This document shows, piece after piece, positions 22,348 through 58,744 of a DNA stretch of 64,000 bases. The translations under genes were made by a program, and so were the position numbers. The stretch is from the sequence record OP557969.1; one strand, written 5' to 3'. How positions within the stretch are numbered: the stretch's first letter is position 1; the number at the start of each line of letters is the position of its first letter. This stretch comes from Escherichia phage ph0011. Below the pieces are notes generated by a model. The model did no database searches. It saw only the letters and a list, made by a program, of their open reading frames with translations, and was not told where the DNA came from.

Positions 22348-23987
22348 TGAAACAACTACAAGAACTATATCAAAAAATTCTAGATGAAGGCGTGGAAAGT
22401 GTTGACCGTACTGGTGTTGGTACAACCAAACTTATCGGTCAACAAATGCGTTTCGACCTTAACGATGGTTTTCCAGCAGTGACGACAAAACGTCTAGCAT
22501 GGAAAACAATGGTTGCTGAACTTTTATTTTTTATTAAAGGTATTCCAGACCGTCGAGTGATGCAGGAATTTTTACATGGTGAATTTAATGAAGATAAGAA
22601 CGATATTTGGAAAGGTAATTGTGTTGATATGAAAAATAAAAATCCATTAAAATTTAATGGATACAATTTAGGTAATATGTACCCAGTTTACTGGAGACGA
22701 ATGTATAAACCTGTTCCTAAAACAGTTAAAGTTAAACGTAAAAAAGACTTTGATTTTGAATATATTGAAAAATATAAATCATTTTATGATGATGTAGAAA
22801 TTGAAAAACATCATAAATCGGGTCAAACATTCATTGATATTAGGGGAGATGAGTTAGAATATCTTGGATTCAATGGACAGTATGAAAATAAACGACATTA
22901 TTTGAAATATAAGAACACGGGAACTATAATCAAACTCAATACATCTGAAATTGATATTAAACATAATAAACTTAATAGTGGTGAAGATTATTATAAAAAA
23001 AATTCAGTCGGTGGATATTTGGGTGCACCACGTGAAGTTCTTTCAAATGATCCATTGAACTCAAAAGTACAGAGCCTATGGTATAATATGCTTTCTCGTG
23101 TAAACACCTCTCCCAACTATAATAATATTAGTGTTAGCCCAAGGTGGTATAATTATTATAACTTCCTAACTGACATTCGTACTATACCACTGTTTTTTGA
23201 ATGGTTGGATGATCCAACATATTATGAATTAGATAAAGATTATTTTGGTTCATCTGTTTATTCAAGAAATACATGTACATTTTTACCCAAACATATCAAT
23301 CAAAAATTAATAAGAAAACGCAATGACTGTGCATTGGAAGTTGATGGAATACTTTATTATTCATTTACATGTTTTTATAAATCAATTTATGGTGGGAAAA
23401 CACAACCAAAAGATCCATTTACTTTTTTAGAAAATAACGGTCATACTTATATTATTCACGAAGAGACAGATGAATATGTATACCGTCCACAATTGTTTAT
23501 TGATCAATTAGAAACTGTTATTGAAAATATTAAACATGTCACCTTGAATGAAAATCATCCGGCTGGACGTAGATTGATTATGGATTCTTGGAATCCATCA
23601 TGGGAGGACGATTCAGTTCTGGGAATATGTCACCCATTTGTTCAATTCTTTGTAGTGAATGGAAAGCTGTCATGTGAGTTTTATATGCGTTCATCTGACA
23701 CATTTCTTGGATTACCACTGAATATATCATCATATGCATTATTGACGCACATGATTGCACAAATTACAGGTCTAGAAGTAGGAGAGCTAATTTACACTGC
23801 TGGTGATTGTCACATTTATAAAAATCACATTGAACAAGTAAAAGAACAACTACAACGAAAACCACGTGCATTACCTGAATTATGGATTGATCCTACTATT
23901 ACTGATATTGAAGATTTCACAATGGATTCTTTTAAATTGATTAATTACGATCCAATGCCAACAATTAAAGCACCGATGGCTGTATAA
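22347..23987 (+). CDS. td: thymidylate synthase (T4 Td-like) with about 260-aa in-frame insertion
   Basis: N-terminus DRTGVGT...GFPAVTTKRLAWK and C-terminus with catalytic Cys (ICHPFVQFF), DTFLGLPLNISSYALLTHM and PTIKAPMAV are ThyA-like; residues ~121-379 have no ThyA counterpart. Confidence 0.8.
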   Translation: MKQLQELYQKILDEGVESVDRTGVGTTKLIGQQMRFDLNDGFPAVTTKRLAWKTMVAELLFFIKGIPDRRVMQEFLHGEFNEDKNDIWKGNCVDMKNKNPLKFNGYNLGNMYPVYWRRMYKPVPKTVKVKRKKDFDFEYIEKYKSFYDDVEIEKHHKSGQTFIDIRGDELEYLGFNGQYENKRHYLKYKNTGTIIKLNTSEIDIKHNKLNSGEDYYKKNSVGGYLGAPREVLSNDPLNSKVQSLWYNMLSRVNTSPNYNNISVSPRWYNYYNFLTDIRTIPLFFEWLDDPTYYELDKDYFGSSVYSRNTCTFLPKHINQKLIRKRNDCALEVDGILYYSFTCFYKSIYGGKTQPKDPFTFLENNGHTYIIHEETDEYVYRPQLFIDQLETVIENIKHVTLNENHPAGRRLIMDSWNPSWEDDSVLGICHPFVQFFVVNGKLSCEFYMRSSDTFLGLPLNISSYALLTHMIAQITGLEVGELIYTAGDCHIYKNHIEQVKEQLQRKPRALPELWIDPTITDIEDFTMDSFKLINYDPMPTIKAPMAV

Positions 23988-32862: not shown

Positions 32863-33759
32863 TTACTTACCAGAGATAACAATCTTCCCACTGAATGCAA
32901 CATCAGAAGTAAAGATCACGTCACCAGTATTGCTAATTTGTGTATCAGTTATTACCAATTCAAATGGTGAGGATGCAACACTACCAGGTGTTTTATTTGC
33001 ATAAATCGAAACATACAAATTGTCTGGTGATTGTTTGTGTTCAGATGCTGAAATCGTGATGATGAACACATCGTTATTAGAAATCCAATCTGCTTGGTTT
33101 ACTAATTTACTATAAGGTACTGTCATTGTTGTTGCTCCTATAATGTTTACTTTAACATTTGCATAATCTGTAATTTTACCAATTACATCTATTGTGATAT
33201 CACCAGTGCCGCTTACTACTACAGAGGTTTGAAATACGGAATCCAATGTTATACTACCATGAGGATCACCCTGTAGTTGTACCATGATATCAGGACCACG
33301 CCCATGTACAGATGCTGGAAGGGTGTATGTGTAATGGTCGGTAGTATCTGAAACTAATGTAAATGAAGATACTGGTATAGTTTCAGTTGTTACATATGGA
33401 CTATCAGTTTCATGTGAACTACCTTTGAATGATTTCCAAATACCAAGATCTTTAATATAAATTTGAAGAACATTAGTTTCATCAACTAAAAAATACAAAT
33501 CACCATCTAACCCAATAGTTTCATCCGGTGCACTGGTTCCACGCAAAATACCAGAACTCCCACCACTATGTGCGTTTAGATATCCTAACGTAACCAGGTG
33601 TGTGTCAGCGGTCGGTTCACCTGCTGAAATTGGAAGAAGTTTTGTTCCTGAGTAGTTTTGTATTTGCACAACACTACCATTTGTGGTAATCTGTGCACCA
33701 TTCTTCCCAAGAATGAAGGACTTCTTCATGGTTCCTTCTAAATTAGAAAAAACTGCCAT
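32863..33759 (-). CDS. short tailspike/fibre protein with shared N-terminal anchor domain
   Basis: 298 aa; N-terminus MAVFSNLEGTMKKSFILGKNGAQI nearly identical to that of the upstream 713-aa tailspike; GGAG RBS. Confidence 0.65.
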   Translation of the reverse strand: MAVFSNLEGTMKKSFILGKNGAQITTNGSVVQIQNYSGTKLLPISAGEPTADTHLVTLGYLNAHSGGSSGILRGTSAPDETIGLDGDLYFLVDETNVLQIYIKDLGIWKSFKGSSHETDSPYVTTETIPVSSFTLVSDTTDHYTYTLPASVHGRGPDIMVQLQGDPHGSITLDSVFQTSVVVSGTGDITIDVIGKITDYANVKVNIIGATTMTVPYSKLVNQADWISNNDVFIITISASEHKQSPDNLYVSIYANKTPGSVASSPFELVITDTQISNTGDVIFTSDVAFSGKIVISGK

Positions 33760-33775
33760 TTTAATTTAATCTCCT

Positions 33776-35917
33776 TTATGGTAGGGTTATGTACGTTACT
33801 GGTTGGGCGGCTTTTAATGATGCACCAGCGGCAGTTGCTGTTATGATGGGATCTGCAATATCAATTCTATATACGTTATTAACAACATATACTGCACGAG
33901 TTATATACGTTTTCAAATCATCACCATTTTCTCCAGCACCAGATATGATGATCTCAGTTCCCGCCGCTTTTGCATATTGGTTATCACCCCATGACACACC
34001 CAATGCTTCTATGTACGTTTGTCCTACTACCGTTTGTCTAATTGTGTCATATTTTCCAAAAAATGAACCACCCACTGTTACAATATATTTTCCACCTGAT
34101 TTTTTATGTATAATCGTTCCTTCTGGGAAGTATCTTCCACCAGGGAAAGTATCATATGGAATATAATATTGTTCAACTACAGGTATTAGAACTGGGCCAC
34201 GATGACCAGTACCGTCAATAGCAGTTGTTACTTTAAAATTATTAGATGATTGGTCGATTCTATCTACGTACATTTTAGAAAAACTATATTTTGAAACATT
34301 ACAATCATCTTGAACAACACAGTTAGTCCAATTAGTATAAGTATATTTAGAGCGAGTATACATTCCCCCACCCTCACCTTCAGTGGAAAGGTGTTGTCCT
34401 ATTACATCTAATTCTTTTGTTCTGATATCACTAAACTTAGATGAAGATGGTAGACCACGCCAAAGAATTTTAGAACAAGTGATATTACTTAATTCTGTAC
34501 TATTCAGCCAATTATCAGAACCAGAAGTATAAACGAATACGGAAGACTCTGGTATATAGAGATTGGAAATTTTAAAGTTTCTAGGTGGTCCAGCAAATCG
34601 ACCAGCAGTTACCCCCCAGTTAATAGATACCATACGGTTTGTGATTGTAGGATCATTAAGTAAATGTCCGGTTAAACCATCAATTACAAACTCTTTTGAG
34701 CCATAAGTTATCACACCAGCAGTTGTTAATCCAGTACCAACTGAAATTAGAGATGATGGATACACTTCGTTATCAAGTATTTTAAAGTCCATTCCCAATT
34801 CAACATGGATACATTGTCTAACATTATAAATTCTATTGTTCTTAATAACAAAGTTTCTAACGTATTGGGTATCAGGTGCATCCAGACCATAAGGACCAGA
34901 ACCCGCAACACCAATACCGATACCCCAGTTTGAAAGTGGGATTGGTGCATCTGAACCATCAACGTTTTCAATGATATTACCTTCGATTACAAAACCATCA
35001 GGATAATGTGAGTTAATAACGTTTAATTCTATTGCATCACCATATATATCATGAATATGGTTGTAAGAATAACGCCCCACTTTCATTTTCTCACCAGTTC
35101 CTTGCTGAAGAACGCCATATTTACATTTGGTCATTTCATTAAAGCAAAAATCTATTGTTCCTGGTTGGGTCATACCTTGCATCAAAAACGCGGCAGTACT
35201 GGTAATGTTTACAAATTTATTAAAATAAAATTTACCATCCCCACCAAAGAATTTCAAATAACATCCAGTAAGTGTGGTGAATTGAATTTGTGAATTAATA
35301 ACGGATATCATAGTACCACCATTACCAGTAATAGTGCCACCAAACCAAGTTACATCTTCCAAATATACTGCTTTTTTGATACGATAATTACCACCTGCTT
35401 GAATTTGTATTTTATTTTCTTTGGCATAAGTTGCACACAAATTTACAGCTTCAGTGTCATCGGTTTCCCCATCTCCTTTCGCACCAAATTCTTCTGGTGT
35501 TATATAGAACTGTGCTTGTTGAACTGTGCCACCAGTAATAAGGCCAATGAAATCACCACCATTTTTACTTGATAGTACTTTTTTATTAATGTATAGTGAT
35601 TTAATCCATGTGCCATTTGTTTTTACGAAAATATCAACAATACCATCTTCATCAATTTGAAAATAAGTGTTATTGTTTTTTCCAATATCACCAGACGGTG
35701 GTTGAACGCCAAATAAGGCATTTGGATTATCTTCAAGGTATCTAACATTAACTGCTGAATCTTGGTCTGATGGTGTTCCTATCTTTAGTGGTAGAAACTT
35801 TTCACCGAGATAATCTTTTATCGATACGGAATCATTGACGAAATTTATCGAAGCACCATTTTTACCCAATATCATTTTTGGTTTCATGGTTCCTTCAAAA
35901 TTAGAAAATACTGCCAT
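33776..35917 (-). CDS. tailspike protein (beta-helix, depolymerase candidate) with shared N-terminal anchor domain
   Basis: 713 aa; N-terminus MAVFSNFEGTMKPKMILGKNGASI; central region with motifs like NNRIYNVRQCIHVE and repetitive G/N-rich turns suggestive of a right-handed beta-helix; GGGGG RBS. Confidence 0.65.
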   Translation of the reverse strand: MAVFSNFEGTMKPKMILGKNGASINFVNDSVSIKDYLGEKFLPLKIGTPSDQDSAVNVRYLEDNPNALFGVQPPSGDIGKNNNTYFQIDEDGIVDIFVKTNGTWIKSLYINKKVLSSKNGGDFIGLITGGTVQQAQFYITPEEFGAKGDGETDDTEAVNLCATYAKENKIQIQAGGNYRIKKAVYLEDVTWFGGTITGNGGTMISVINSQIQFTTLTGCYLKFFGGDGKFYFNKFVNITSTAAFLMQGMTQPGTIDFCFNEMTKCKYGVLQQGTGEKMKVGRYSYNHIHDIYGDAIELNVINSHYPDGFVIEGNIIENVDGSDAPIPLSNWGIGIGVAGSGPYGLDAPDTQYVRNFVIKNNRIYNVRQCIHVELGMDFKILDNEVYPSSLISVGTGLTTAGVITYGSKEFVIDGLTGHLLNDPTITNRMVSINWGVTAGRFAGPPRNFKISNLYIPESSVFVYTSGSDNWLNSTELSNITCSKILWRGLPSSSKFSDIRTKELDVIGQHLSTEGEGGGMYTRSKYTYTNWTNCVVQDDCNVSKYSFSKMYVDRIDQSSNNFKVTTAIDGTGHRGPVLIPVVEQYYIPYDTFPGGRYFPEGTIIHKKSGGKYIVTVGGSFFGKYDTIRQTVVGQTYIEALGVSWGDNQYAKAAGTEIIISGAGENGDDLKTYITRAVYVVNNVYRIDIADPIITATAAGASLKAAQPVTYITLP

Positions 35918-35929
35918 TGTGACACCCCC

Positions 35930-37057
35930 TTAAATATTATCTTGAATAGGTTGGACCGGAGCTTGCCACGAAAGAGTACAAATAATTTCCATTTTACCAT
36001 AAGGACTGTTATTAACTGAATCATTGAATACACATGAAATAATTTCATCTACATCTGAAACTTCATGATTTGTTTCATTGACGATAAAACGCATCTGGTT
36101 ATTAATATCAAAGTAGGTTGTTGGTGCAATTACGGTTCCACCAATATTCTCGTTTGCTTCACCACCAAATCGAACAAACATATCAGTTACTGGTTGTGAA
36201 TAAGGTTGTAAAACATTTACATCTATATTAGAAACTACATATCCAGAAGGACAAGTCCCAATAACTAATAGAGCATTAGTCCATGATCTATCAATAACGT
36301 TTCTAATTGTTACAGTATCTTTGCCTGGTGCACCCGGTTCACCTTGCTTACCTTGAATACCTTGTGGACCTTCTTTACCACGGAATAAAATACCACTACT
36401 CCATTCTTTTGATGGTGGGGTGGTAGTTGTTACTTCATCCACATAATAAAGCTTACCATCAGTGTTGTTATAGAAACAATAATCAATTGGGAGGTTTTCA
36501 ATACTTGGAAATTGATCACCACTATCGTCAATATGAAAACGACCACGTGGACCTTGCTCACCACGGAAAGGAATACCATCACTCCATGTAGCTGTTACTT
36601 TTTGATAAAAATATAGTTTACCATCTTGTGTATTGTAAAATGTATAGTTATCAAAAAGACCAGAACTTGGAAAAGTAGTTCCTGCACTATCGATATGAAA
36701 AGGCTTACCAGCTTCACCAGTATCACCTTTACCAAATTCAACACTAGTCCAAGTACTGGTTTCTTCTTGTGCATCATTTGATTTAAAATACAGAGTACTT
36801 GTGTTATTTGCCAAACTAAGATAGCACCAGCCAAGCGGTTCACCAACTTTAAATTTATCAGATGGAACTTCAAAACCAATCTCATTAGGATAAAAGTTTT
36901 TACCGTTCTGACCATTTTGTCCCACAACAAGACCGAGATCTTGAATTGTATTATCTGTATATGTTACAATTAAATGACCAGCATTATTAATAACTAGACT
37001 TTTGATGCCTGAGTTATTACATGAACCACTGGACCCATTGTTAAATGTAATTGTCAT
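35930..37057 (-). CDS. collagen-like repeat tail fibre protein
   Basis: 375 aa; G-x-y triplets (GPQGIQGKQGEPGAPGKD; RGEQGPRGR); AGGGAA RBS; heads the fibre operon. Confidence 0.7.
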   Translation of the reverse strand: MTITFNNGSSGSCNNSGIKSLVINNAGHLIVTYTDNTIQDLGLVVGQNGQNGKNFYPNEIGFEVPSDKFKVGEPLGWCYLSLANNTSTLYFKSNDAQEETSTWTSVEFGKGDTGEAGKPFHIDSAGTTFPSSGLFDNYTFYNTQDGKLYFYQKVTATWSDGIPFRGEQGPRGRFHIDDSGDQFPSIENLPIDYCFYNNTDGKLYYVDEVTTTTPPSKEWSSGILFRGKEGPQGIQGKQGEPGAPGKDTVTIRNVIDRSWTNALLVIGTCPSGYVVSNIDVNVLQPYSQPVTDMFVRFGGEANENIGGTVIAPTTYFDINNQMRFIVNETNHEVSDVDEIISCVFNDSVNNSPYGKMEIICTLSWQAPVQPIQDNI

Positions 37058-39897: not shown

Positions 39898-41241
39898 TTA
39901 TTTGTCAGTGAAAGTTATTTTCCAATATCCTTGACGATAAACTGGCATAATACTTTTATGCCATTTAAATTTACCATTGTATCTATAATAACCATTATCT
40001 TCGTTGTTATAAATGTAATTACGCACAGTTGATGGGTCAATTAATTCAGCACCGTCGTTGGTAATTTTAAACAAATAATTCGAAGGAATTTCAGTTTCTT
40101 TGTAAATGATGTTATGCATACTGTTATTTACGTAATATTGTTCAGGTATTGCATCAAAAAGAACTGAGCTTTTTTGGACAAATCCATGAATAGTATAATC
40201 AACTGTATAGTTGCTACTATCAAGCTGAACGATAATTTTATTTGCATCTTCATCTTCACCATATGAAGAAATATAGCCTTTGAGTGGATTATCTTCTTCG
40301 ATTGATTGTTGAAATTTAATACCGACTTTTTTATCATCAAAATTGGGTTCCAAATATTTAAGATATTTTTCCCATGAGTATATACCACCATTAGGGGAAA
40401 CATCGGACAATGACTGACTAACTAAAGTTAGTTGATATGTATCTGGTAAATTATATAAAGAATTAGTTATCTCTTCAACTTTAATACATAAGTTTTTTGG
40501 TGTAAAGACATCAGTGATAATATCCGAATAGTCAGACATTTCAATGTCAAATTCATCACGAGCACCTTTTATATTAGTAGTGATCTGTTGAATCAATTTT
40601 GGTTTTTCAACAATAGCTGGTAAAGAAAACCATATTGTTGTTTCAAATGTCAATACCATAATGTCTAAATCTTGGTCAGTTCCTTGTGGAAATCCACGTG
40701 TAGAGAACTGACAATCAATCAACTCTACATCACTTAGTGATGTCCAATCCAACGGGTTTTCAGATAACTGAAGTTGAATACTCGGTGAAAATAAAGTTGA
40801 AATTTGCTCAAATAATTCCATCTTTGTTTGTATTTGAGTTACCCAGATATTCAAATCAAATGTAAATGTCCAAGGAACTGGGTTATGTCTTACGATTTTA
40901 TATTGTGAATCGAGTTCTTTTTTGTATTCATTAATGGCAGGTGATGTGTTTGTTCCCATAACTAATGTTTCATTCGCATTAGAACGTATACTTTTACGAT
41001 CCAGCTTTAGTTGATTAACACTGATTGTCATAATTGGTGCAGATGGAAGAACATTTTCACTATTACCATTGATAATTGCAGCAGCCATTCTTGATATATC
41101 CGCATAACGACATGGAACCTTTTTATATTTTGGGTTCCCATCAGCATCAACACCATTTTGTACTTGAAATTCACCAAAAACTCTGATAAGATGTTTCAGT
41201 ACTCTGCGAAATTGGCCGTCATAATAATAATCTATTTTCAT
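39898..41241 (-). CDS. tail completion / sheath stabiliser, T4 gp15-like (tentative)
   Basis: 447 aa; N-terminus YYYDGQFRRVLKHLIRVFGEFQV...VPCRYA resembles T4 gp15 N-terminus recalled from memory; start overlaps upstream stop (ATGA). Confidence 0.45.
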   Translation of the reverse strand: MKIDYYYDGQFRRVLKHLIRVFGEFQVQNGVDADGNPKYKKVPCRYADISRMAAAIINGNSENVLPSAPIMTISVNQLKLDRKSIRSNANETLVMGTNTSPAINEYKKELDSQYKIVRHNPVPWTFTFDLNIWVTQIQTKMELFEQISTLFSPSIQLQLSENPLDWTSLSDVELIDCQFSTRGFPQGTDQDLDIMVLTFETTIWFSLPAIVEKPKLIQQITTNIKGARDEFDIEMSDYSDIITDVFTPKNLCIKVEEITNSLYNLPDTYQLTLVSQSLSDVSPNGGIYSWEKYLKYLEPNFDDKKVGIKFQQSIEEDNPLKGYISSYGEDEDANKIIVQLDSSNYTVDYTIHGFVQKSSVLFDAIPEQYYVNNSMHNIIYKETEIPSNYLFKITNDGAELIDPSTVRNYIYNNEDNGYYRYNGKFKWHKSIMPVYRQGYWKITFTDK

Positions 41242-42731
41242 TCTGTGTCCTTATGTATACGATAAGCTGTATTTGGTTTAACTGCGTCATGTAATGGAAC
41301 TTTATTATCACTATTTACGAACTTAGTAAGTGCTAAATCTGCACCTTCCCACGGTTTTCTACCACCGTAATCAAAAATAACCCATGAATTCTTAGTTGCA
41401 TTGAATTCCCACAGTGTAACTGGTGTATAATCAGTACGGTAAAAGTAATCACCATCAACTGCATCAGTAGGGAACATGTTTCCTTCTGGAACTGTACCTC
41501 TTGCTGGTGGGATTTTAGGGCGATAATCCTGTTGTGCATCAATATTTCCATATACACAACTTGATGTGAATGGGTCATTGACGTAAGTTACTTTTGGTTC
41601 GCCCCATTTACCATCATTGTACTGAAAAATGTGTGGTTCTTTATAAAAAATACAAAAATCTTCAATATCTTTTGGTGGATTTTCACTGGTCGTGTATTCA
41701 ACATCACAATTTAACCATTTTTTAACACTTTTATCGTACTGGTATAGTGTATACCCAGTTACATCTACATCATTCTCTTTAAAGAAGAAATCACCATCCA
41801 TAGGTTTCTTAGGAAAAACGGTTCCACGCTTGACTTCCAGTGAAATCCATGTATCATTATCGTATTCTTTAAGTATTGGGTATGTTTTTTTCAAAAAATA
41901 CATACCACTTGCAGGTTCTTCGGGGAAATCATATCCATTAAGCATATACTTTGACAAATCAACAGTATCACGACGGTCATCATACAAATGCTCGTTGGTA
42001 TAATGAATATAAGGCACTTCATCATCAGCTTGCATAATGATACGATTCATAATATCCATTTCATTACTATAGTTACTGTTATCAGATGTACCATCATCAG
42101 TGTTACCATTACCATTATTTGGATCATTTGGGTTATCAGGGTAATTGTTGTTTCCTAGTAAGTCGGAGTACTCAGGAGAGTCAGTCAATGGCTTTACTCG
42201 AAGTTTATAAATGTGATGTTGCCAAGTAACAGAGTAACCTTCTGCTGTACGAAACGCATCTTGGACCACATAGAAGCGATTCAGACCAGAATCTTTACCA
42301 AGAACATCATAATCACGTAAATTTGGTAGTTCAATTACATCACCAGGCATGATTTTTCTACCCAATCGTTGCATCATGGTATTGTAGTGGATTGTAATGT
42401 CCATCGTGTTGAAATTAAAGAACAAACCTGGAATTTTCAAGTCAGGTGTTGCTTCTTGAACTTGATAGACACAACTTAGTGTGATTGCTTCAAGATTATA
42501 GTTTCTATTTGGGGTGTCTCCAAAAATTAAATCACCAATACTTGACACAACCGATCCAGAAGATGTATAATCACCGCCATATGATAAGTCTTTGTTATCT
42601 GCAACTTGTTTTGGGCCGACATAAGCGTAAAGCCACATGTCAACACCACCAATGTTGTATTGTTCAGCAATGGCAGAGTCAATGAACTTGTAATCATTGG
42701 TTCTACCTTTTTTCCACATTCTATATGTCAT
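41238..42731 (-). CDS. neck protein, T4 gp14-like (tentative)
   Basis: ATG at 42731 preceded by GGAGA (track ORF starts at TTG 42743); weak resemblance to gp14 in the region MPGDVIELPNL...YKLRVKP. Confidence 0.4.
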   Translation of the reverse strand: MTYRMWKKGRTNDYKFIDSAIAEQYNIGGVDMWLYAYVGPKQVADNKDLSYGGDYTSSGSVVSSIGDLIFGDTPNRNYNLEAITLSCVYQVQEATPDLKIPGLFFNFNTMDITIHYNTMMQRLGRKIMPGDVIELPNLRDYDVLGKDSGLNRFYVVQDAFRTAEGYSVTWQHHIYKLRVKPLTDSPEYSDLLGNNNYPDNPNDPNNGNGNTDDGTSDNSNYSNEMDIMNRIIMQADDEVPYIHYTNEHLYDDRRDTVDLSKYMLNGYDFPEEPASGMYFLKKTYPILKEYDNDTWISLEVKRGTVFPKKPMDGDFFFKENDVDVTGYTLYQYDKSVKKWLNCDVEYTTSENPPKDIEDFCIFYKEPHIFQYNDGKWGEPKVTYVNDPFTSSCVYGNIDAQQDYRPKIPPARGTVPEGNMFPTDAVDGDYFYRTDYTPVTLWEFNATKNSWVIFDYGGRKPWEGADLALTKFVNSDNKVPLHDAVKPNTAYRIHKDTE

Positions 42732-42773
42732 ATTTGTCTCCAAAATAATTCGGGTATATCTTTATTTACCATG

Positions 42774-42801
42774 TAGACAAACCATAAGAATGTGATATAA
42801 T
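42774..42801 (+). promoter_or_regulatory. sigma70-type promoter with extended -10 upstream of ClpA-like gene
   Basis: TAGACA, 16-nt spacer, TGTGATATAAT; lies in the divergent intergenic region. Confidence 0.45.
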
Positions 42802-42839
42802 GTTTGTTAATTAGAGTGACGTGAATCACAGGAGAATAC

Positions 42840-45128
42840 ATGAATCTTACTCAATTGTTCAAAAAAAGCGACGAACTAGCAACATCCCTAGGTCATACTT
42901 TCTTGACTATTGACCATGTGAGTGCTACAGTACTGACTATTGATAGTATCAAGGGCGTGTTCGAAGAAATGAACATCGATGCTGACAAATTGCATAGTCG
43001 ACTGATGAACTATCTTAAAAATACAACGGTTCCAAGTGCACCAAAAAGTACACTCGATGAAGATGCTAATCGCACTTCACTTCTGGTGAACCGTGTTGTA
43101 CATGAGCTTTCGAAAAAATCAGTCATTGAACAACTAAAAAGTGATGATTTTTCGATTGATGCATATTTTGTTCTATTTGAATGTTTATCATTCCCAAACA
43201 CTGCACTTGAAGCTGCTTTGAAAGAAGAAGGCGTTAGCTGTACCGAAGCTGCTCGTGCACTACAGAAACACGTTGAGGCACTGGAAAAGGGTATCAACCT
43301 TCAAAGTATCAATGACGAACCTACTGGAGATAAAAAAGTGGCTCAACCACAGCAATCATCTAAACAAAAAGGTTTAGCAGACTATACAACAAACCTAACG
43401 GCACTTGCAAAAGAAGGCAAACTAGACCCAATGATTGGTCGCCAAAAAGAGCTATCTGCATTGATTGAGACTCTTGCTCGCAAAACCAAAAAGAATGCCA
43501 TCCTGACTGGTGAAGCTGGTGTTGGTAAAACACAAATCATCGACGGTCTTGCACAAGCAATTGCTGATGGTAATGTACCAGAGCACTTAAAAGATGTTGA
43601 AATTCTTTCCCTAAATGTTGGTGCGTTGACTGCTGGGACTAAGTATCGTGGTGAATTTGAGGAACGTATCGATAATTTACTAAAAGAACTAAAGAAACGT
43701 GAAAACACAATTGTTTTCATTGATGAAATCCATATTATGGTCGGAGCAGGTTCTGCAAGCAACGGTTCAATGGACATGAGCAATATGCTTAAACCAGCAC
43801 TATCACGTGGTGAGATTCGTGTAATTGGTGCAACAACATACGAAGAATATCGTAAAAACATCGAGAAAGATAGTGCATTGACTCGTCGTTTTATGAAAAT
43901 TGATGTTGTTGAACCGTCAATCGATGAAACTCGTGAAATTGTGAACGGTCTTAAATCAACTTATGAAAAATTCCATAACGTTGAGTTTACAAAAGATGCA
44001 ATGGATGCAGTAATTTCTCTCAGTGAGAAGTTCTTGAAAAATAAACACTTCCCAGATAAAGCAATTGACCTAATGGATGCTGCTGCTGCGAAAGTGCGTT
44101 CACGTGATAATAATAGTAAACTAATTACAGAGAATTTGATTCAAGAAGTTGTTGCTGGTATTGCTAACTTGGATATCAACGTGGTTGCATGTACAGAAAG
44201 TGAACGTATGCGTAATCTACCAGATGCACTACGTTCACGTGTTTACGGACAAGAAGAAGCGATTCAAAAATTGGTTGATAATGTAATGGTTGCTCGTGCT
44301 GGTCTACGTGATAAGTCGAGTGTTCAGGGTGCTTTTATGTTTGTTGGTCCGTCAGGTACTGGTAAAACAGAAATTACAAAAGCATTAGCTGAAGCAACGG
44401 GTTCAGAGCTTGTTCGTTTTGATATGTCTGAGTTTTCTCAAGAACATACTGTTTCAAAACTAATTGGTTCCCCTCCAGGTTATGTTGGTCACGATTCTGG
44501 TAATGGTTTGCTATTGGATAAGATTGAGCAGTTTCCTAATGCCATTCTACTACTCGATGAAATCGAGAAAGCAGATCGTAAAGTACTACTAACCTTCCTA
44601 CAGGTTCTGGACGAAGGACGTTTGACTGGCTCACAAGGTAAAACTGTTTACTTCAATAACGTAACTGTTATTATGACAACCAACCTTGGTGCGGCTGATT
44701 CAACAAAGCGTAGTATTGGGATGAGTGGTAGTGAAAGTGCACAAGACAAGGCAATTAAAGCATTCTTACCACCAGAATTCATTAACCGTATTGACAGTAT
44801 TGTTACGTTTAATGAACTAAGTAGTGAAGCAATTGACAGTATCATTGATAAATTCATGGGAAGTTTGAATGAACAAGTTAAACATCGCAACGTAAAAGTT
44901 TCACTAACGAAAGCTGCACGTGGATGGCTTGCAAAAAATGGTGTTCAGGTAGGTATGGGTGCACGACCAATGAAACGTACAATTGAACAAAACATTCGCG
45001 TACCACTAGCGAAGGAAATGTTGTGTGGTTCACTGGTAAATGGTGGTAACATTACATTTGATGTTATCAATGACAAACTTGGTATTAAACCAAAACGTAC
45101 TAAAGCAGTTGAAAAAACACTAGCTTAA
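42840..45128 (+). CDS. clpA: ClpA-like AAA+ unfoldase (Clp_N domain, D1 and D2 ATPase modules)
   Basis: 762 aa; GGAGAA RBS; D1 Walker A GEAGVGKT and Walker B FIDEIH; D2 Walker A GPSGTGKTE and Walker B LLLDEIEKA; ClpP-docking-type loop SIGM; collinear with E. coli ClpA. Confidence 0.85.
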   Translation: MNLTQLFKKSDELATSLGHTFLTIDHVSATVLTIDSIKGVFEEMNIDADKLHSRLMNYLKNTTVPSAPKSTLDEDANRTSLLVNRVVHELSKKSVIEQLKSDDFSIDAYFVLFECLSFPNTALEAALKEEGVSCTEAARALQKHVEALEKGINLQSINDEPTGDKKVAQPQQSSKQKGLADYTTNLTALAKEGKLDPMIGRQKELSALIETLARKTKKNAILTGEAGVGKTQIIDGLAQAIADGNVPEHLKDVEILSLNVGALTAGTKYRGEFEERIDNLLKELKKRENTIVFIDEIHIMVGAGSASNGSMDMSNMLKPALSRGEIRVIGATTYEEYRKNIEKDSALTRRFMKIDVVEPSIDETREIVNGLKSTYEKFHNVEFTKDAMDAVISLSEKFLKNKHFPDKAIDLMDAAAAKVRSRDNNSKLITENLIQEVVAGIANLDINVVACTESERMRNLPDALRSRVYGQEEAIQKLVDNVMVARAGLRDKSSVQGAFMFVGPSGTGKTEITKALAEATGSELVRFDMSEFSQEHTVSKLIGSPPGYVGHDSGNGLLLDKIEQFPNAILLLDEIEKADRKVLLTFLQVLDEGRLTGSQGKTVYFNNVTVIMTTNLGAADSTKRSIGMSGSESAQDKAIKAFLPPEFINRIDSIVTFNELSSEAIDSIIDKFMGSLNEQVKHRNVKVSLTKAARGWLAKNGVQVGMGARPMKRTIEQNIRVPLAKEMLCGSLVNGGNITFDVINDKLGIKPKRTKAVEKTLA

Positions 45129-45137
45129 AAAACAAAA

Positions 45138-45162
45138 GGAGAGCATTTTGCTCTCCTTTTTT
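45138..45162. terminator. bidirectional terminator between convergent genes
   Basis: GGAGAGC-ATTTT-GCTCTCC flanked by A-run and T6; ClpA-like stop 45128, giant gene stop 45164. Confidence 0.6.
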
Positions 45163-45163
45163 A

Positions 45164-48100
45164 TTACTTAACTATTAATATTTTTTGAATATCATTACCA
45201 CGAACTCGTAGACTGTTAGTATACACAGAAAGGTCTATTGTATAACTATTTTGAGTATAACGTTTAAACTTATCATAACCGCCCAAATTAATTCCGTTGA
45301 AAGAATATGTAGTATCATGTTTGAAATCGTGTTCTGCACTGTACATTACTCCACGGAGTAAGTTGTTTGTATTTCTAACTTCAACTTTTTCATATCCAAT
45401 CGATATAATGTCACTCTTGTTAGCAGCGGAGCCTGATAACACATTATTTCTAACATTATAATGGCTTACGGAAAGAGGTTGTGCTACATAAGTTGTGTTT
45501 TCTTCACTAATGGTTGTTATGTTAGTGATGGTAGCGTCAGCCACATCAATATACATACTATCAACCATTGGATATTCATACACCCACACACCTTCATTAT
45601 TTTTTGTCGGTTTGATATCTTTCGCATCATATTCAATCACGTTAATTTCTAAACAATCCGGCATTTTAGTTCTTACTAATTCACTAAGAACACCTTCCCC
45701 TGTAATTGGTAGATTATAACCGTTGTCTATAGTAATACCATCATCATTAAATATTTCATTTGATACAACCCAAACATCAACATCATCAGGTGTTACTCCG
45801 TCATTATACTTACCACCATTTAAAGTAGTATCATAAAAAACGTCATAATTAATCACATCAATGGTGTAATTTCTGTTTTGCTCATATAATTTAATATCAC
45901 CCTTGGTAAATTCTGGGTCAGCAAATGTTCTAACACGAACAATGTTCAATGCAAGATGTTGTACTGGCTGATTCAGTTGTCCAAGTGTGATGTTATCATA
46001 TCGAAGAACATTACCAGAACTATCAACCAACTCAATCGTTTCTTTTCCTGTAGTTCTTACAGTGAATAGAATAGGAGTTGTATTATGTTTGATATTAGAC
46101 ACACGTAATATGGTTTCCCATGTACGATTTTGATATCGAATAAAATCTTCACCATCCGGTGTGAAAATCATCACCTTATCACCATCAGATAAGTCACTGT
46201 CAACGATTTCAGCCTCAGTTAAGCTATTAATAGAACGTACACGATAGAAATATTTTTCTTCAAACGGTGATGCCGTTTTATTAATATCATGTTCAATCTT
46301 AGCATATGAAGGAATACTAACAATTGCTTCTGTATGTTTATATGGGTTGATAATTGCCATACCCTCGGTTTTATATCTGCTATTATTACGCAATTGCACT
46401 AGTGATTCAGTATCAAATCCATAACCATCAACAGTGAATCTAATATGCCCAACTGCACGACTAGCTGGATTTATTTCAGATATATCGATAATATAAGGAT
46501 CAACTTCATCATCTTTAACTTCCCATTTGATAGCTGAAGTTTGTGATTCTAATGCAAGGTTGTCAAATGCATTCATATCATTGAAGAACTTAGCTTCAGC
46601 AATACTATCAATTATATATTGATAATCCGAATACATAGGGTTATTTTGATCTTGTGGTAAATCATCTAGATTTATTTCAGCAAGTTTAATCATTTCACCA
46701 TTAGTAATGAAATAATCTTCCATGAAATCATCAATACTTTTATCATCTGGTATACTTTGGTATTCACCATTGATATTTAAGTAGACATGTTTTCTTGGCA
46801 TCATAGTAATAGCATAGATATCAATAGGTGTTTTTGAAAGAATTTCTTCTGCTTTTTCATACATATCAGCAGAGTCTTTATCAAACAACCCTCTCATGGC
46901 TGCCAGTACATGGACCGCATCGGAATAGAAACGTGTATCACCACCAATTTCATCATAACGATAAACATATACACCGTATTCAACTTCAAGTTTCACTTTA
47001 ATATCATGTTCAGATGCATCTGGATATTTTTCTGTAATAAAAGAAATATATTTTTCATATAATTCTTTACTTATTTCAAAATATCCATAGTTATAATCAT
47101 TACTTGAAGAAAAACCTAATGGTAGTCTAGTACTTGGGTTATCATTATAAACCAAACCACTAAATCCACAGCCAACCTCATCATGAATCTTATCATCACT
47201 GATATCTTTATAAAGTTTCAAACGGTTTGCTAATGTATTGTACTGAACATAGTGTCGAAGGTCAGTAAACATTTCATTATGCGTTGATTCGTTATAAATG
47301 CGTTCAAGTGTAGCAGTAAATTCATCAGTTGCTTCTAAATCATCAGCATGTTCTTTATACCACTGGTTTACACCATTTGCAGTTCCTAGTGTTACATCTA
47401 ATTCTGGATAGTACGTTTGTAATAGATACGCATTAACCAAGTCAAATGATTGTTCATTATACACAGGGTAAGAATATATATAACGTTGTAATTCATAGGT
47501 ATTAACAGAATCTTTTTCATTTGATTGATACTTATTATTAACACTAATCAACTCATTAATGTTTGCCAAATCTTTATTCGGTTTACATTGAATATTATCA
47601 TAATGCATAATAATATCAATTTCTTGAAATCTTCTATTTGGTGCAATAAAATCACTAGGCAGAGAACCTACTTTCTCCCATTTTTTAGTGGTTTCATTAT
47701 ATTGAGCGTACTCATAATCCCAAATATCCTTTTCAGTTTTAACCCACGAACCATCAACAAAAATATACCCATTAGGATCTAAATCATTACAAAGACCTTT
47801 GATTAAGTCATCATCAGACGTTTTTTGTTCTATCTGTGAACGGATTTTTGTACGATATGGTTTCACCTCTTCAAAGTACTCAACAATTTGGTTAATCAAA
47901 TTATCATTTGAATAGTTTTGTACCAAAGATTGTTCCAAACCAACAATATAGATATAGGATGTTTTAAATACCCAATCAACAACACCCTGTTCTACGTGTA
48001 CATATTTGACCATATCAAAAACAATTTCACTTTGGTGTAAATCGAAAGAATTTTTTAGCAAAGCAAGTGCTTTTCTAATATTAATTTCACGATTACTAAG

Positions 48101-51100
48101 TGAACCGTCCTCATTATGAACATTATAATCTACATAAAACAAATCGTTAAGCTCAATAGTACTACGTTGTCGCCCAATAGCTTTCCAATAAATTGAATCA
48201 CGTGATTGAGATTTGATATATAAAGTCCAAATGTTTTCACTATCTGTGACTCTAATTATATCACCAACTTGATAGTTTTTAGCATTTGCTTCTTCTAAAC
48301 TTATCTCTTGGATGTAAGCAGTTTTGCTATCATACCCAACATCATACCAATCTGCATAAGACCAGTATTGAGTCATATCTAATGATGTTCCGAGTGATTC
48401 AACATAATCCGATTGCTTAATCATTTTATGTTGTCCTTCACCTTTATTTTCTAAAGTTATAGTAACAACACTACCTGCATTAGCTGGACTATTCATTAAC
48501 TGAATATATCCGTTTTCATCGAAGTGAATAAAATAAACAGCACTAGTTGATAATGGAGTCGGTAGATAACCGCTAGAACTTAAAATAACAGCGTCATTTT
48601 CTTTAAATTTATCCTTTTCAACTGCAATTACAAGTTCATTATTATAAGTTAATACACGGAACGAAACCTCATTAGGGTTAACTTCTGTAGTTTTAACATT
48701 AAACACATCTTCCATAACAACACTATTAGTAGTTATGTTTTGTGATCTATAATAATTATTTGCACTTTCTACAAAGTTTCTACGTGCCTCTATTATATTC
48801 TGGAACCAAGTTTTATTAGAGCCTAAACCAGTGTCAACTTCTGGATATAATAAATCTACAACCTTACCTGACTTCGTAGTTTCTTGACCAATTAGAGAGT
48901 TCCACATAGAGTCCCAAATTAGTGGGTTAAAGTTGTAACTTTCACCCTCTTTGCAAAGTTGATATTGGTCATGTTTAACAACTTCTGTATTGTCCATATA
49001 GTAAGAAATAGTCAAAACACTAGTATCATCATTAACTTCAAACTGCATATTACTAAGAATAAAAGAGTTTTCATTAATTGGTGCGAACCAAGGAATGTTC
49101 AACTGTGATGGATCTTTAATAATACGTGCAATGTCAGTACATGATTTTGTTCTGGTATGAATAGGTGGTACATAAATTGTATCACGTACCCAGAAATAGT
49201 ATTTTGTTACATAACTGTCAGTGGAGCTATCATATTCCAAAAATGTACTATAATTATCTTCAAGTGCTGTTCCACTTGGAAGATACATATTATTATTTTT
49301 GTTTTTCTTAGCAACATCTTTACAGTACTTATCCCAGTTATATGGTTCTACTGGTGAACAAACCCATTCCAACACATCAATAGTACTATGTGGCAACAAA
49401 CGACCCCAGTTGTAACGTTTATATTCATTGGTTGCGTCAATATCAACATTTCCATCTGCATCATAAATGGCACGAGTATAATCCAAATAAAAAGCGGTGC
49501 TAGTGTTCCACCATACTTGACCAACTTTTTCAGCACCCCACGCCTGAACCAATTCGCCATTGCTATTATATTGAGCAGGGTCGATTGGTGAAGTATATGT
49601 TACGTTTTGCATTGCTGCACCAGGAATAACACCATTAATTGGGTCATAAACATTTAGATATAATGCAGTAATGTTTGTACGTTCATCATATGTAGTTGGA
49701 CGTTCAAACAAAGTACTTTGTGGTGCTTTAAAACTATATTTTTTATCAATATATGCTTGACGCTCTTCAGTACTCACAAAACGCGAAACATAACGATACA
49801 AACGAGGGCGTGTATCTGGGTCAGTAAATTCGATATTAATTGAAGTATCAAATGGAACCACCATAACTTTGGAATCATCCCCAGCAGTATAATATTGACT
49901 TTCTACTGTTAAAGTATCTGGCATAAAGTTAGTTTCGTCCACAAAATAATAGTAATCACCATCTTCAAGAGGGATATCATCAGATAGAGTTACTTTACAG
50001 AATTTCTCAGCGTAAACATCTGTGGTTTCGATTGGTGTAATAGAAACCATTTTAACATTAGTGTCAATTAATTCAAAAATGTTCCATAACCCATTTCCAT
50101 CTTTGAACATCCATACTGATTCAGGATTTTCACCTTTACCATTGATATACAACATACGGTCATTGAATGCAGTACTGAAATCTTTCGTAGTATAAGATAC
50201 TTCATCTAATGTAACTGGACCAATATCAGGCAGTTGGATGTGTTCACTTCTACCACTACGCATTGGGAAAGAGAATTTACCATTTGGACGAGTAATCCAT
50301 TGTGGGTCTTTTCCTTGTTCACCAAAGAATACAATATTGTTTCCATTACCATTTGATGTTGCATTTTCATCAAAAGACATCATTTGTGGCTGCTGCTTAA
50401 ATTGGTCATTAATCAATTTAAATTGAAGGTTTTTCTTTCCATCGATGTTACCATATGTACCAACTTTAAACGCCCATTCTTGTAATGCTTTATATTCATC
50501 AGTATCATAGGATTTAGAAACACGAAGAACACGTTCTAAAACTTGGTTTGTACCTTTGTCATGAATAAATCCTTTATAGAAATCAACACGACTTACATCA
50601 CTACTAATCATACGTTGTAGATAATCACGAGATTGATAACCAATCAAATGGCTAGACAATTCTTGTAATTGTACATCGCTAACGGGATGTTCATTGTCAT
50701 AGTAATGTTGAAAATCTGTTACTAGAGTTTCAAATGATGGTATTGTACCAGATTCCAAAATAATAAAACCAGGTGCTTGTAATCTACCAGTCCATGAACC
50801 AGTAATGTACCCATACATTTTAATTAGTTCCTGGATAGAACCATAAGTTGGTTGATAGATATAATCACCAAAAATAGTCTTATCATCAAATATAACAGCA
50901 TGTTCATATGAACACAAACTTAAGCGGATTAATGCAATACGCTTATTAGAATCGGTTGTTCTAACAGTGAATATATTACCAATACGTGAAGTTTCGATTT
51001 CATATTGACGAATACCTTGGTTATTATCATCAAGCAATGACCACACACCACCATTATTTTGTGTAATAGACTGTACTGAACCAAAATCCGAACCAAACTT

Positions 51101-54100
51101 AGCATTTGCAGCACTTGGTGTACAAGAGATAAATTCGCCAGTTACCAGAGGACTCTGACTCCATATCACAAAATCTTTAGCAATAGTGTGCCAATCTTGC
51201 TGAATACCATCTTGATTAACATCTTCGAAAATCCAGCCATGTTCTTTAAGATACTCACCATATCCACAAATAAAAGTGTATACTTCTTGATAACTATTGA
51301 AAATAGTCCCATATTCAATAGAAGCCTCAGACTTCCATTCATTATAATGAACAATATTACGGTTTTCCAATTTAAGAGTTACTTTTCTTCCATTTTTTAC
51401 TGGAAGTTTATATTTAAATTTCGCACCAACCAAATCATATCCATCAATTTGATATGCACTACCATTCCATGTAATTTTGATGGCACTCATCTGTTCATCG
51501 CGAATGTTATTCGAACGCACCAGACCAATCGTTTGGTTTTCTTGTGAAATAAGACCAAATGATTTAGCGTTGAATGTTAATTGATCTGCTTTAGTAAAGC
51601 CACCAATTTTATGTCCCACATTTACGTAAGACGAACGTACAACATCTCCATATTTTGTAGTAATATTTTTATTTTGATACATCAAATAATCACTAACAAA
51701 CATTTGATATCCAATTGTTCTTGTGTTATCTTCACCATGAACAGTTGTGTTTTTATCAAAATTCACACGATTGCGGGTATCCCCGTACAGAAATTGTTCA
51801 CCAGTGGTGATAATTTCTTTCAAATTGTCATTACGGGTATCCCAATAATAGTTGGCAAATTGTGCAGGTTTAGCTTTATACAAAAGTAACATTTGGTCAT
51901 ATGCAAACAATGTGGTGTTCATATACGTAAATTCCATATCACCCATGTCGCCATACGCCCAAGGTTCTGCTCGGTGAACTAAAGATCCAGACACTAATCC
52001 TAAAACTTCAGGAGCAATATACTCAACCACACAAATATCTACACCGGATGATGTTTTATTTCCAGTTTTAGTAATTTTAAATGGTTGTACACCAAATCTT
52101 TTATATTTGTCATACTGACCACGGCGGTCGCCATATAAAATTGTCCCAGTACTACTATCGCCGATTGTATCATTTACATCCCAAAGTCCACTAGGAACCA
52201 AATCACCTTGTTCATCAGTTACAAGTGCCTCATATACATAAACTACATCACCATCACGTTCACCAACTTGGACAGCGGTTGGTTCATACTCTTGGTTCCA
52301 CCAAGTAGGACGTTGTGTAAACCCAAACATTTCCCATGGATGTGTAGCAGGGCGATATGTACCATATTGATCAGTATAGATTGCACGCCATGAACCACGA
52401 GCAGGAATTTCAGTACTTTTACCATCAACAACATAATAGGTTCCAGTATAGTTCCATGTTCTCCAGTTATTAGGATCATAATCATGTGTACTATTACTAA
52501 TACCATTAGATGCAGTGAAGTTAATATAACCACGTAATAGAAGTGTTTGTTTTTCTTCTGCACTATATTCAGTTTTTGTAAAATATGGTGTAGGGAAAAG
52601 ATCATCACTATTCAATACAGGGACATAATCAACATCTTTGAATTTATTGTCAATACTATTGAAAATTCTATTTTCAAGTTCATATACAACATCATCCATT
52701 TTATCAACACCATTGATAACACGGTATGCTTTAGAAATAATACCAGTATGGCTGATATTATAATAGCTAGGTTTACTACCAGCAGTTAGGAATGTTGCTT
52801 TCTCAGGAACGTATGCTTGTAGAATACCTAAAAACTGTGGAGTTGGTGGTATAAATGCACGAATAAGACCAGATGTACTACCCACATTGTCATAATAGAA
52901 TGGGAATGAACTATCACGACCCATATTAATAGTTGCCAAAATAGAATCAACGATGTTAGCTGCACTATTTTGTAAAAAGTTAGTTGGGTTTTCATTGTAC
53001 ATTCTAAGCATTTGTGTATTAAATTTATTAATGAATCTGAAATATTCAGATTGCATAAACATAGTTGCTTCAAATAAATCAATATCTTCATTTGCAGTAT
53101 GAGCCATCAATGGGAGCATAGAAGCTTCATTTTGAATAATTTTAGTTCCTACTCCATTATTCACTAATCCCTTAGCTAAACGTTCTTCATAATCGTTGAA
53201 GTCATCAGCATAACCACTAGTGATATTCTGTTGAATAATATCCTGAAAATGAAGAGTATAGTCTCCTTGATTAATATATATAATATTGGAGTTATATGGG
53301 TTATTTTGTAAGTTAATTGGAACTTCATATGCACCTAATTCTTTATCAGGTGTTACAGTACTGCTATAAGTTCTAATTTGAATAACAGAATCATCATCCA
53401 ATTCAACACTGTTATCGATTGTGATACTTTGCACTTGACCTTTTAATACATTCTTGGTATATTTGGAGATATTAACACCATCAACAACAACTTCAATAAT
53501 ATCAGAGTCATTGTCTAAAACTTTTTGTGCCAATTCAAAAGTATGGTCATATTTTAAAACCTGAATACCATCACCACTAATTTGATGCCAGTCCAAATAT
53601 GTTTCACGTTCAGCTTTATAGTACTGATATGTTTTATCAACTTCGATGACATATGCATACATACCCTCGACTGGTTCTTTAAACAGTTCCATATCATAAA
53701 CAGAACTAAAGACTCGATACATATCAGTACGTTTGACTTGAGGTGTCTGTTTTACAAATTGTTTAGAGAATTCTTTTGAACGCACCCAATCAGTTTGAAG
53801 ATTCATTTTATTATTTTCATCAATGATGTTATAATAATACAAACCACCGATTTCAACTTCAACACCAAGATGGTCATATGTATAACGTTGTGATTGTAAA
53901 AAGTTTTCATAAGTGTAATAGTTATAATCACCAAGTTCAATGTTATACCCATATACACTATCAGCCGCGTAGTTATAGTTGATTTTAAATCCAAATAATG
54001 GTGAACCTTTAAATGTACTGGATGGGTACGTGGTGCTGTTATCTAGTTTGATTCCATTACGATCATAAAGTTGGAATTGAGGAAAGACGTTAACACTTGG

Positions 54101-58676: not shown

Positions 58677-58744
58677 AATTTATTCCTTTAAATCAGTAAA
58701 GTACTAGTTCAGTACTGGGAATTATATAGAAATATTTATTCAAA

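Follow-up and report, generated by a model that had tools for sequence, protein, structure and literature searches.

In Escherichia coli, ClpA (PDB 1KSF, 6W1Z; NCBIfam model TIGR02639) is the ATPase of the ClpAP(S) protease. Relatives of this protein are also known from large bacteriophages: gp581 of phage 121Q is annotated as a "ClpA-like protein," a ClpA-like or clpA label is present in more than 30 deposited genomes (including those of 121Q, PBECO4, RaK2, and GAP32), most Rak2-like phages conserve ClpA (Attai et al., 2018), and ClpA has been counted among the AAA+ chaperones of jumbo phages (Iyer et al., 2021; PMC7824862). The paper on phage fEgEco12 does not mention Clp. Here we describe the clpA-like gene at positions 42840..45128 (+) of a 64,000-nucleotide stretch of Escherichia phage ph0011 (OP557969.1), referred to below as the window, whose DNA is 87–89% identical to that of the Asteriusvirus-type jumbo coliphages UE-S1, 121Q, PBECO4, and phAPEC6. 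Because it is annotated in so many genomes and mentioned in two papers, the gene is not novel, and the gene call itself adds nothing new. Our concern is with what the gene is for, and the reading that we favor, with moderate confidence, is that its product serves as the ATPase of a phage-owned ClpS-like/ClpA/ClpP protease, made from a host sigma-70 promoter and independently of the late structural genes.

The open reading frame (ORF) encodes 762 amino acids, starts with ATG, and ends with TAA, which is counted in the coordinates given above. In searches of the PDB, E. coli ClpA was the top match and aligned as a single collinear HMMER stretch (query 17–744 vs. 20–737, E = 2e-178; 1ksf), whereas ClpC, ClpB, and Hsp104 each aligned as two separate stretches with lower scores. 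BLASTP against ClpA of E. coli K-12 gave 43% identity over 732 columns, and overall identity to E. coli ClpA is 40–43%. Among NCBIfam models, the ClpA model TIGR02639 ranked best (754.5 bits, residues 3–740), ahead of those for ClpB, ClpV, ClpK, and ClpG, and the Pfam domains AAA (D1), AAA_lid_9, AAA_2 (D2), and ClpB_D2-small were all detected. Query residues 10–420 pair with E. coli ClpB 15–402 and residues 429–747 with ClpB 531–853, so the ClpB M-domain (403–530, ~128 residues) has no counterpart in the phage protein, which has an 8-residue junction there; the missing M-domain and the IG-type loop described below place the protein outside ClpB/Hsp104. Sequence comparison thereby confirms a genuine, intact ClpA-type unfoldase in a Rak2/121Q-like jumbo phage. 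A preliminary description of the locus had proposed just such a full-length, phage-borne ClpA with a Clp N-domain and two AAA+ modules with intact Walker motifs, had suggested an alignment to check for a ClpB middle domain, and had placed the gene between two minus-strand structural operons, with an extended −10 promoter of its own and a bidirectional terminator; all of this agrees with what we found here and in the analyses of the domains and flanking DNA given further on.

The tripeptide IGM (aa 626–628; 44715..44723, +) forms the tip of the predicted ClpP-docking loop. It aligns with I617-G618-L619 of E. coli ClpA, and with the residue before it (SIGM, 625–628) the match to S616-I617-G618-L619 is column for column. 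In the cryo-electron microscopy structure of E. coli ClpAP, the docking loop enters a hydrophobic pocket of ClpP (10.1101/820209). The loop reads KRSIGMSGS in the window protein and RKSIGLIHQ in E. coli ClpA; it is 2 aa shorter, with Met for L619 and Ser for I620, the fourth hydrophobic contact. The consensus for the docking tripeptide is (L/I/V)-G-(F/L) (PMC8745299), and IGM lies just beyond it by virtue of Met in the third position. The preliminary description had recognized an IG(M/L)-type tripeptide at the docking position: the position is correct, in line with the IGL of ClpA, and the concern that IGM might fall outside the docking loop is dispelled by the alignment, but the sequence itself is outside the consensus and the tripeptide varies clade-wide. 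Among 111 representatives of the phage clade we found 25 distinct tripeptides (e.g., IGM, MGM, IGV, IGA, LGM, LGL, MSM, IGG, and MNM), and across the same set this is the most variable stretch of D2 within residues 441–660. The eight nearest bacterial ClpAs always have IGF or MGF.

The pocket that would receive this loop differs from the host's as well. Relative to E. coli ClpP, phage ClpPs have Y60 replaced by T, V, or S, L114 by G, T, or S, and F49 by W or Y, while F82 is variable, and these changes are clade-consistent. ClpPs of Rak2-like phages also carry a conserved C-terminal extension of ~20 aa right behind the C-terminal strand that forms the pocket.

These partner proteins were examined in relatives of the phage only, because none is encoded within the window; a search for a phage clpP or adaptor gene, which the preliminary description had suggested, showed that the relatives carry both ClpP and a ClpS-like protein. 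In 121Q the ClpP homolog is gp464, which shares 35.6% identity with the E. coli protein across 90% of its length and matches Pfam CLP_protease (4e-41), and the Ser-His-Asp triad is kept in all eight phage ClpPs examined. We rejected the RefSeq label "head maturation protease" for this homolog: phAPEC6 (gp227c) and PA5oct (gp152) have a separate T4 gp21-like prohead protease, and the phage ClpP is therefore not the head protease. Two other 121Q proteins with suggestive annotations were set aside as partners. One is the "ClpP-like" gp473 (stretch L004, 13421–14029), for which the Pfam CLP_protease match is weak (E = 0.007) and which has a hydrophobic N-terminal stretch that by eye resembles a signal peptide; the other is the "ClpYQ-like" gp475 (stretch L004, 14357–14953), which has no Pfam match. 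Both genes are found a few kilobases away from clpP proper.

With E. coli ClpS as the query, the adaptor of the 121Q group was missed, and with the ClpS-domain protein of GAP32 (GAP32_314; Pfam ClpS, 9e-11) homologs were found in 71 Rak2-like records. The 121Q member, gp48, is annotated "protease adapter protein ClpS" (Pfam ClpS, 2e-5). The distributions of the three proteins over phage genera are nearly identical. ClpA was found in 32 Escherichia, 11 Klebsiella, 10 Salmonella, and 8 Erwinia phage records, ClpP in 33, 10, 8, and 8, respectively, and the ClpS-like protein in 33, 10, 8, and 8, together with four records for Yersinia and two each for Cronobacter, Pectobacterium, Xanthomonas, and Serratia. 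It is because the relatives hold an intact ClpP and a ClpS-like protein with matching genus distribution that we favor a phage-owned Clp set, in which the phage ClpS-like protein, ClpA, and ClpP would pair physically. Any match to ClpX was seen in only 10 Escherichia phage records, compared to the 32 with ClpA, and ClpA is therefore probably, though not certainly, the sole Clp ATPase in most 121Q-type phages. As to its own neighborhood, the clpS-like gene immediately follows, in all five phages examined (121Q, 33273–36203), the gene for a full homolog of translation initiation factor IF3, which Pfam IF3_N and IF3_C confirm for 121Q; the 121Q gene that follows clpS-like is annotated "DnaJ-like" and actually matches the KTSC domain.

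Differences from the host are also predicted where ClpA meets its adaptor. In E. coli, K84 of ClpS contacts E23 of ClpA, E82 contacts R86, and E79 contacts both E28 and T81 (PMC12493166). At E. coli positions E23, E28, T81, and R86 the window protein has T20, D25, S80, and R85, that is, one contact residue is lost, two are conservatively replaced, and one is identical. The K84–E23 salt bridge is gone on both partners (K84 is F, Y, or L in the phage ClpS-like proteins, and E23 is T in ClpA), and the E79 contact is kept in the ClpS-like proteins, with D25 and S80 as its partners in the window ClpA. Residues of the phage adaptor that would contact an N-degron are changed too (N34 to D, D36 to P, N, or K, and H66 to N, with the gatekeeper M40 changed to A), and the phage proteins exceed E. 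coli ClpS by ~70 residues at the N terminus and ~35 at the C terminus. Judging from the aligned residues, both the ClpA–ClpP and the ClpA–ClpS interfaces have diverged from those of the host.

The ClpA of the window belongs to a separate phage clade. Its orthologs are 121Q gp581 (95% identity), phAPEC6 gp246c (95%), RaK2 ORF069 (75%), and GAP32_229 (61%), and a search of 5.8 billion proteins returned about 110 cluster representatives with at least 52% identity, many of them on contigs of 330–380 kb. From this phage clade to bacterial ClpAs (40–47% identity) the score drops from 806 to 596 bits. In a neighbor-joining tree of D1 plus D2, the Rak2-like proteins group together at the end of a long stem as a single clade, separate from bacterial ClpAs including that of E. 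coli. The ratio of nonsynonymous to synonymous substitution rates (dN/dS) is 0.045 against 121Q, 0.10 against A4, and 0.13 against RaK2, and GC content at third codon positions (GC3) is 0.26 for the phage gene, in keeping with the phage's own base composition (0.22 in the giant gene next to it), compared with 0.575 in clpA of E. coli. Gene order at the locus is constant among those phages of Escherichia, Klebsiella, Salmonella, Cronobacter, and Erwinia that were examined: clpA points away from a gp580-like structural gene and toward the gene for a virion protein of ~3,300 aa, which is read in the opposite direction. The phage clpA is an old phage gene under strong purifying selection. Composition, phylogeny, and selection together lead us to reject a recent host origin: the idea of a recent host-derived passenger, or of a pseudogene in decay, that does nothing for the phage has a general likeness to bacterial ClpA in its favor and nothing more, while the low identity to E. 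coli ClpA, the monophyletic clade, the dN/dS and GC3 values, the intact catalytic motifs, and the conservation of position, promoter, and terminator across genera speak against it, and we give it practically no weight. The worry attached to the preliminary description, that the gene might be a recent host-derived insertion with disrupted motifs, is laid to rest by the same evidence.

The domains of the protein can be followed along the gene on the plus strand. The N-domain (aa 1–150; 42840..43289) is a double Clp repeat, of which Pfam Clp_N recognizes only one (residues 11–59, 23.4 bits vs. a cutoff of 20.7, E = 6.7e-5). In the AlphaFold model, residues 1–150 (mean predicted local distance difference test score 83) form eight helices arranged as 4+4, and Foldseek with this model matched Clp/Hsp100 N-domains only, the ClpA N-domain being best with a template modeling (TM) score of 0.69–0.72 at 20–21% identity. 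Identity to bacterial ClpA N-domains is only 15–20%, and within the phage clade the domain is conserved; the motif VIEQLK...FVLFECLSFPnTALEAAL is kept across the clade, and its core, FVLFECLSFP (aa 110–119), lies at 43167–43196. The linker to D1 that follows (about aa 151–178; 43290..43373), assigned by alignment to the ClpA linker, is among the most variable segments of the clade, with a mean entropy of 2.05 for residues 141–160 and 2.27 for residues 161–180. The D1 AAA+ module (about aa 179–440; 43374..44159; Pfam AAA and AAA_lid_9) contains Walker A GEAGVGKT (aa 224–231; 43509–43532), the pore loop KYR (aa 268–270; 43641–43649), Walker B IVFIDE (aa 291–296; 43710–43727), and the RR finger region (43881–43892). 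The D2 module (about aa 441–745; 44160..45074; Pfam AAA_2 and ClpB_D2-small), which includes the C-terminal D2-small domain, contains Walker A GPSGTGKT (aa 503–510; 44346–44369), the pore loop GYVG (aa 547–550; 44478–44489), Walker B ILLLDE (aa 569–574; 44544–44561), and the sensor-2 motif GAR (44958–44969). These ATPase motifs are near-invariant across the phage clade and bacterial ClpAs.

Upstream of the gene, a promoter scan identified the −35-like hexamer TAGACA (42774..42779, +) and, after 16 nt, the extended −10 element TGaTATAAT (42793..42801, +), together an 11/12 match to the consensus with the TG extension. As a class, promoter-like matches are not above chance in the clpA region (6 found vs. 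8.8 expected), and we nevertheless credit this one because it is conserved among relatives in which synonymous sites are saturated. The sequence TGTG[A/C]TATAA is kept in seven of the eight aligned relatives, the carriers being 121Q, A4, Munch, SE_PL, GAP32, and Kaldavass among others, with ClpA identity down to ~60%; RaK2 has TTGACA-N17-gaTATAAT without the TG. The −35 element is weakly conserved among relatives, as is expected of extended −10 promoters. A ribosome-binding site, AGGAGA, stands 4 nt ahead of the ATG (42830..42835, +), and a purine-rich AGGAG/AAGGA element is kept in relatives. Downstream lies an intrinsic terminator (45134..45160, both directions) with a 12-bp stem, a 3-nt loop, an A-run upstream, and a T-run downstream. 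It was scored on both strands by the scan, serves the convergent 3333-aa gene as well, and is kept in relatives by compensatory changes in the stem; an equivalent terminator is annotated in phage Munch.

This promoter sets clpA apart from its neighbors. It is the sole gene in the 64-kb window with an intergenic TGNTATAAT upstream, and eight other genes, mostly annotated or mass spectrometry (MS)-detected structural genes and including both large genes downstream of clpA, have the T4-late-like motif ATAAATA 13–63 nt upstream. Eight of the 13 occurrences of ATAAATA are intergenic (at 6395, 9465, 26354, 37100, 37129, 55178, 58739, and 59699, for example), though intergenic DNA makes up 2,970 bases, or 4.6% of the window. 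The motif has been described as a late promoter in Rak2-like phages (PMC5259590). A near match, GTAAATA (42763..42769, −), is positioned for the divergent structural operon (41238–42743); it was identified by pattern match only, and an exact ATAAATA occupies this site in Munch, SE_PL, GAP32, and Kaldavass. The predicted promoter class of clpA is different from that of its structural neighbors, and since its promoter should be readable by unmodified host sigma-70 RNA polymerase, clpA is probably expressed early or throughout infection, apart from the late structural genes.

Both genes flanking clpA are on the minus strand, and their phAPEC6 homologs are virion proteins by MS. The published virion MS list of phAPEC6 includes the flanking gp245 (382 kDa) and gp248, and the ClpA ortholog gp246c is absent from it (PMC7247149), for which reason we conclude that ClpA is not a virion component and is not built into the particle. 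In the convergent ORF on the downstream side (45164–55165, −; 3333 aa), Pfam recognizes no domain at E ≤ 0.001; the phAPEC6 homolog of this ORF, gp245, is supported as a virion protein by 17 MS peptides.

Taken as the ATPase of a phage-owned protease, the gene product would act as follows. Unmodified host sigma-70 RNA polymerase would read clpA from its own extended −10 promoter, and the product would assemble as a hexameric, double-ring AAA+ unfoldase. By homology, the KYR and GYVG pore loops would grip substrate polypeptides, which would then be unfolded at the expense of ATP and threaded through the D2 ring. The IGM-tipped loops would dock most likely on the phage's own ClpP, predicted to be catalytically intact and to have a pocket unlike that of the host. 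Substrates would be chosen by the phage-specific N-domain, probably with the help of the phage ClpS-domain adaptor.

Several observations weigh against this reading. A tblastn search of the 64-kb window, in which proteins of E. coli and 121Q served as queries, revealed neither clpP nor clpS, and the presence of clpP and a clpS-like gene in the window's own phage is an extrapolation from relatives at the DNA identity given above. In 121Q the clpS-like, clpP, and clpA genes are scattered (at about 34.5, 214.4, and 298.3 kb, a span of ~260 kb), so there is no linkage at the level of an operon. The NCBIfam score of 754.5 bits for TIGR02639 is below the equivalog cutoff of 993.15, as is that for the bacterial ClpA equivalog NF008263 (646.4 vs. 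1350 bits), and we therefore assign the protein to a divergent subfamily of phage ClpA-like proteins rather than to the bacterial ClpA equivalogs. The central Gly of the docking tripeptide is missing in about 16% of the clade representatives (MSM, MNM, and similar), and this loss, with the variation of the tripeptide, means that docking could be under relaxed constraint. In eight paired genomes, the ClpA tripeptide and the pocket of the cognate ClpP were compared for covariation, and no simple pattern emerged; the pockets of 121Q (IGM) and A4 (LGL) are in fact identical. ClpP was flagged by virion electrospray ionization tandem MS in PA5oct (gp212) and by a single peptide in CBB virions (CBB_104), which hints at a role for ClpP independent of ClpA. 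Finally, literature searches for experiments on phage ClpA, ClpP, or ClpS, whether biochemical, genetic, or on timing, found none.

Two other explanations take the same unfoldase in different directions. The preliminary description had suggested that the phage ClpA could redirect host ClpP toward host or defense proteins; on this reading its IGM loops would dock on the host ClpP tetradecamer and deliver substrates of the phage's choosing. The tripeptide is indeed at the docking position and follows the hydrophobic-Gly-hydrophobic pattern, with Met conservative for Leu; host ClpP is abundant as infection starts, and a sigma-70 promoter can be used at once. Such hijacking is also compatible with a phage-owned protease, as the two are not mutually exclusive. 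It is made unnecessary, however, by the intact ClpP that the phage lineage always has of its own, and the shortened loop with Ser in place of I620 also counts against it. ClpP is near-identical among Escherichia, Klebsiella, and Salmonella hosts, and the range of tripeptides among the phages of these genera (IGM, LGL, IGV, IGA, and MNM) would thus not be explained by adaptation to host ClpP. We regard hijacking as unlikely, if worth keeping in mind.

The remaining explanation dispenses with proteolysis. A ClpP-independent unfoldase or chaperone, working alone or with phage J-domain or KTSC proteins, might remodel or hold huge virion proteins such as the 3333-aa product, or might dismantle host complexes. 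E. coli ClpA can remodel RepA by itself, and in PA5oct and Atu_ph07 clpA adjoins dnaJ. The conserved place of clpA, with the gp580-like structural gene on one side and the giant virion gene on the other, fits this explanation, as does the fact that the part of D2 that would touch ClpP is its most variable, at times lacking the Gly; a translocase or assembly-chaperone role has also been suggested in the literature (Iyer et al., 2021; PMC7824862). Set against this, the loop is kept in every member of the clade, usually as hydrophobic-Gly-hydrophobic, and the distribution of ClpA matches that of the intact ClpP and the ClpS-like protein. Two further points against it are a promoter class unlike that of the structural genes and the absence of gp246c from the phAPEC6 virion, though an assembly chaperone need not be packaged. 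The role in virion assembly that the preliminary description had offered as an alternative is disfavored on these two grounds and by the ClpP and ClpS-like protein of the relatives. A purely ClpP-independent function, in either form, seems to us rather improbable, and the phage-owned protease remains our preferred reading.

A further step beyond the phage-owned protease is to suppose that it is orthogonal to that of the host, the interfaces having drifted so far that the three parts neither share subunits with host Clp nor are titrated by it. The remodeled adaptor pocket and N-domain could then give the phage protease a substrate range of its own, for instance host defense or regulatory proteins or spent early phage proteins, as opposed to the classical Phe/Leu/Trp/Tyr N-degrons. 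This is a tentative idea that we consider possible and somewhat doubtful; because covariation was not found, it rests on divergence from the host. What can be said is that a phage lineage with genomes of ~350 kb keeps a full set of adaptor, unfoldase, and peptidase under strong purifying selection, with predicted interfaces unlike the host's. Should the trio prove to be insulated from the machinery of the host, it would offer a natural case of regulated proteolysis supplied by a virus, orthogonal degradation parts for use in synthetic biology, and a route to finding which host and phage proteins a jumbo phage must destroy.

Elsewhere the window departs from 121Q in several places. The thymidylate synthase ORF (22347–23987, +) encodes 546 aa, compared to 309 aa in 121Q (gp568); it matches Pfam Thymidylat_synt in two stretches, with an in-frame central insertion of ~240 aa and mosaic, diverged flanks. 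Intein termini are not obvious in this ORF, and Rfam does not match a group I intron there; an Rfam scan of the whole 64-kb window returned no match at all, and the window has no tRNAs. Between the neck protein and deoxynucleoside monophosphate kinase genes is a 664-aa DUF7487 ORF (3369–5363, +), where 121Q has the 89-aa gp549. A 763-aa ORF (24022–26313, −) corresponds to the 654-aa gp569 of 121Q, annotated as a structural protein, and the alignment to 121Q is interrupted within it at about 24651–24959. Conversely, 121Q gp584 (765 bp; stretch L001, 39590–40354), a "protein associated with group I intron" encoded between the baseplate wedge and baseplate genes, is missing from the window, where the alignment skips over it at about 58691–58719.

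Compared with known systems, the phage protein has the plan of E. coli ClpA. Its length is 762 vs. 758 aa, the order of domains is the same (N-domain, linker, D1, and D2 with the docking loop, without an M-domain), and it retains the Walker A and B motifs, both pore loops (KYR and GYVG), the Arg fingers, and sensor-2. The two differ in that E. coli has IGL followed by Ile on a longer loop where the phage has IGM followed by Ser, in that the phage N-domain carries a motif of its own and no longer has the E23 contact with ClpS, and in that the E. coli gene belongs to a clpS-clpA operon whereas the phage gene is virus-encoded and stands alone. ClpB/Hsp104 and ClpC share the class I Clp/Hsp100 plan of an N-domain and two AAA+ rings and gave strong search scores; ClpB is set apart by its M-domain and by having no IG-type tripeptide at the loop position, and ClpC by its two separate, lower-scoring matches.

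Among phages, PA5oct (clpS-clpP-dnaJ-clpA) and Atu_ph07 (whose set comprises ClpX, ClpA, ClpB, ClpP, and ClpS) resemble the 121Q group in encoding ClpA, ClpP, and ClpS together. PA5oct differs from the 121Q group in other respects: its ClpA is 42% identical to the window protein, groups with bacterial ClpAs in the tree, and has a canonical IGF loop, and its ClpP is 48% identical to that of E. coli, lacks the C-terminal extension, and has a pocket more like the host's. The PA5oct Clp genes also lie within about 20 kb, as opposed to the wide spread seen in 121Q. The closest counterparts of the window protein are the ClpAs of the Rak2-like phages already named (121Q gp581, RaK2 ORF069, GAP32_229, and phAPEC6 gp246c), which are direct orthologs with the same neighbors, promoter type, and terminator, and which differ from it by ordinary sequence divergence only.

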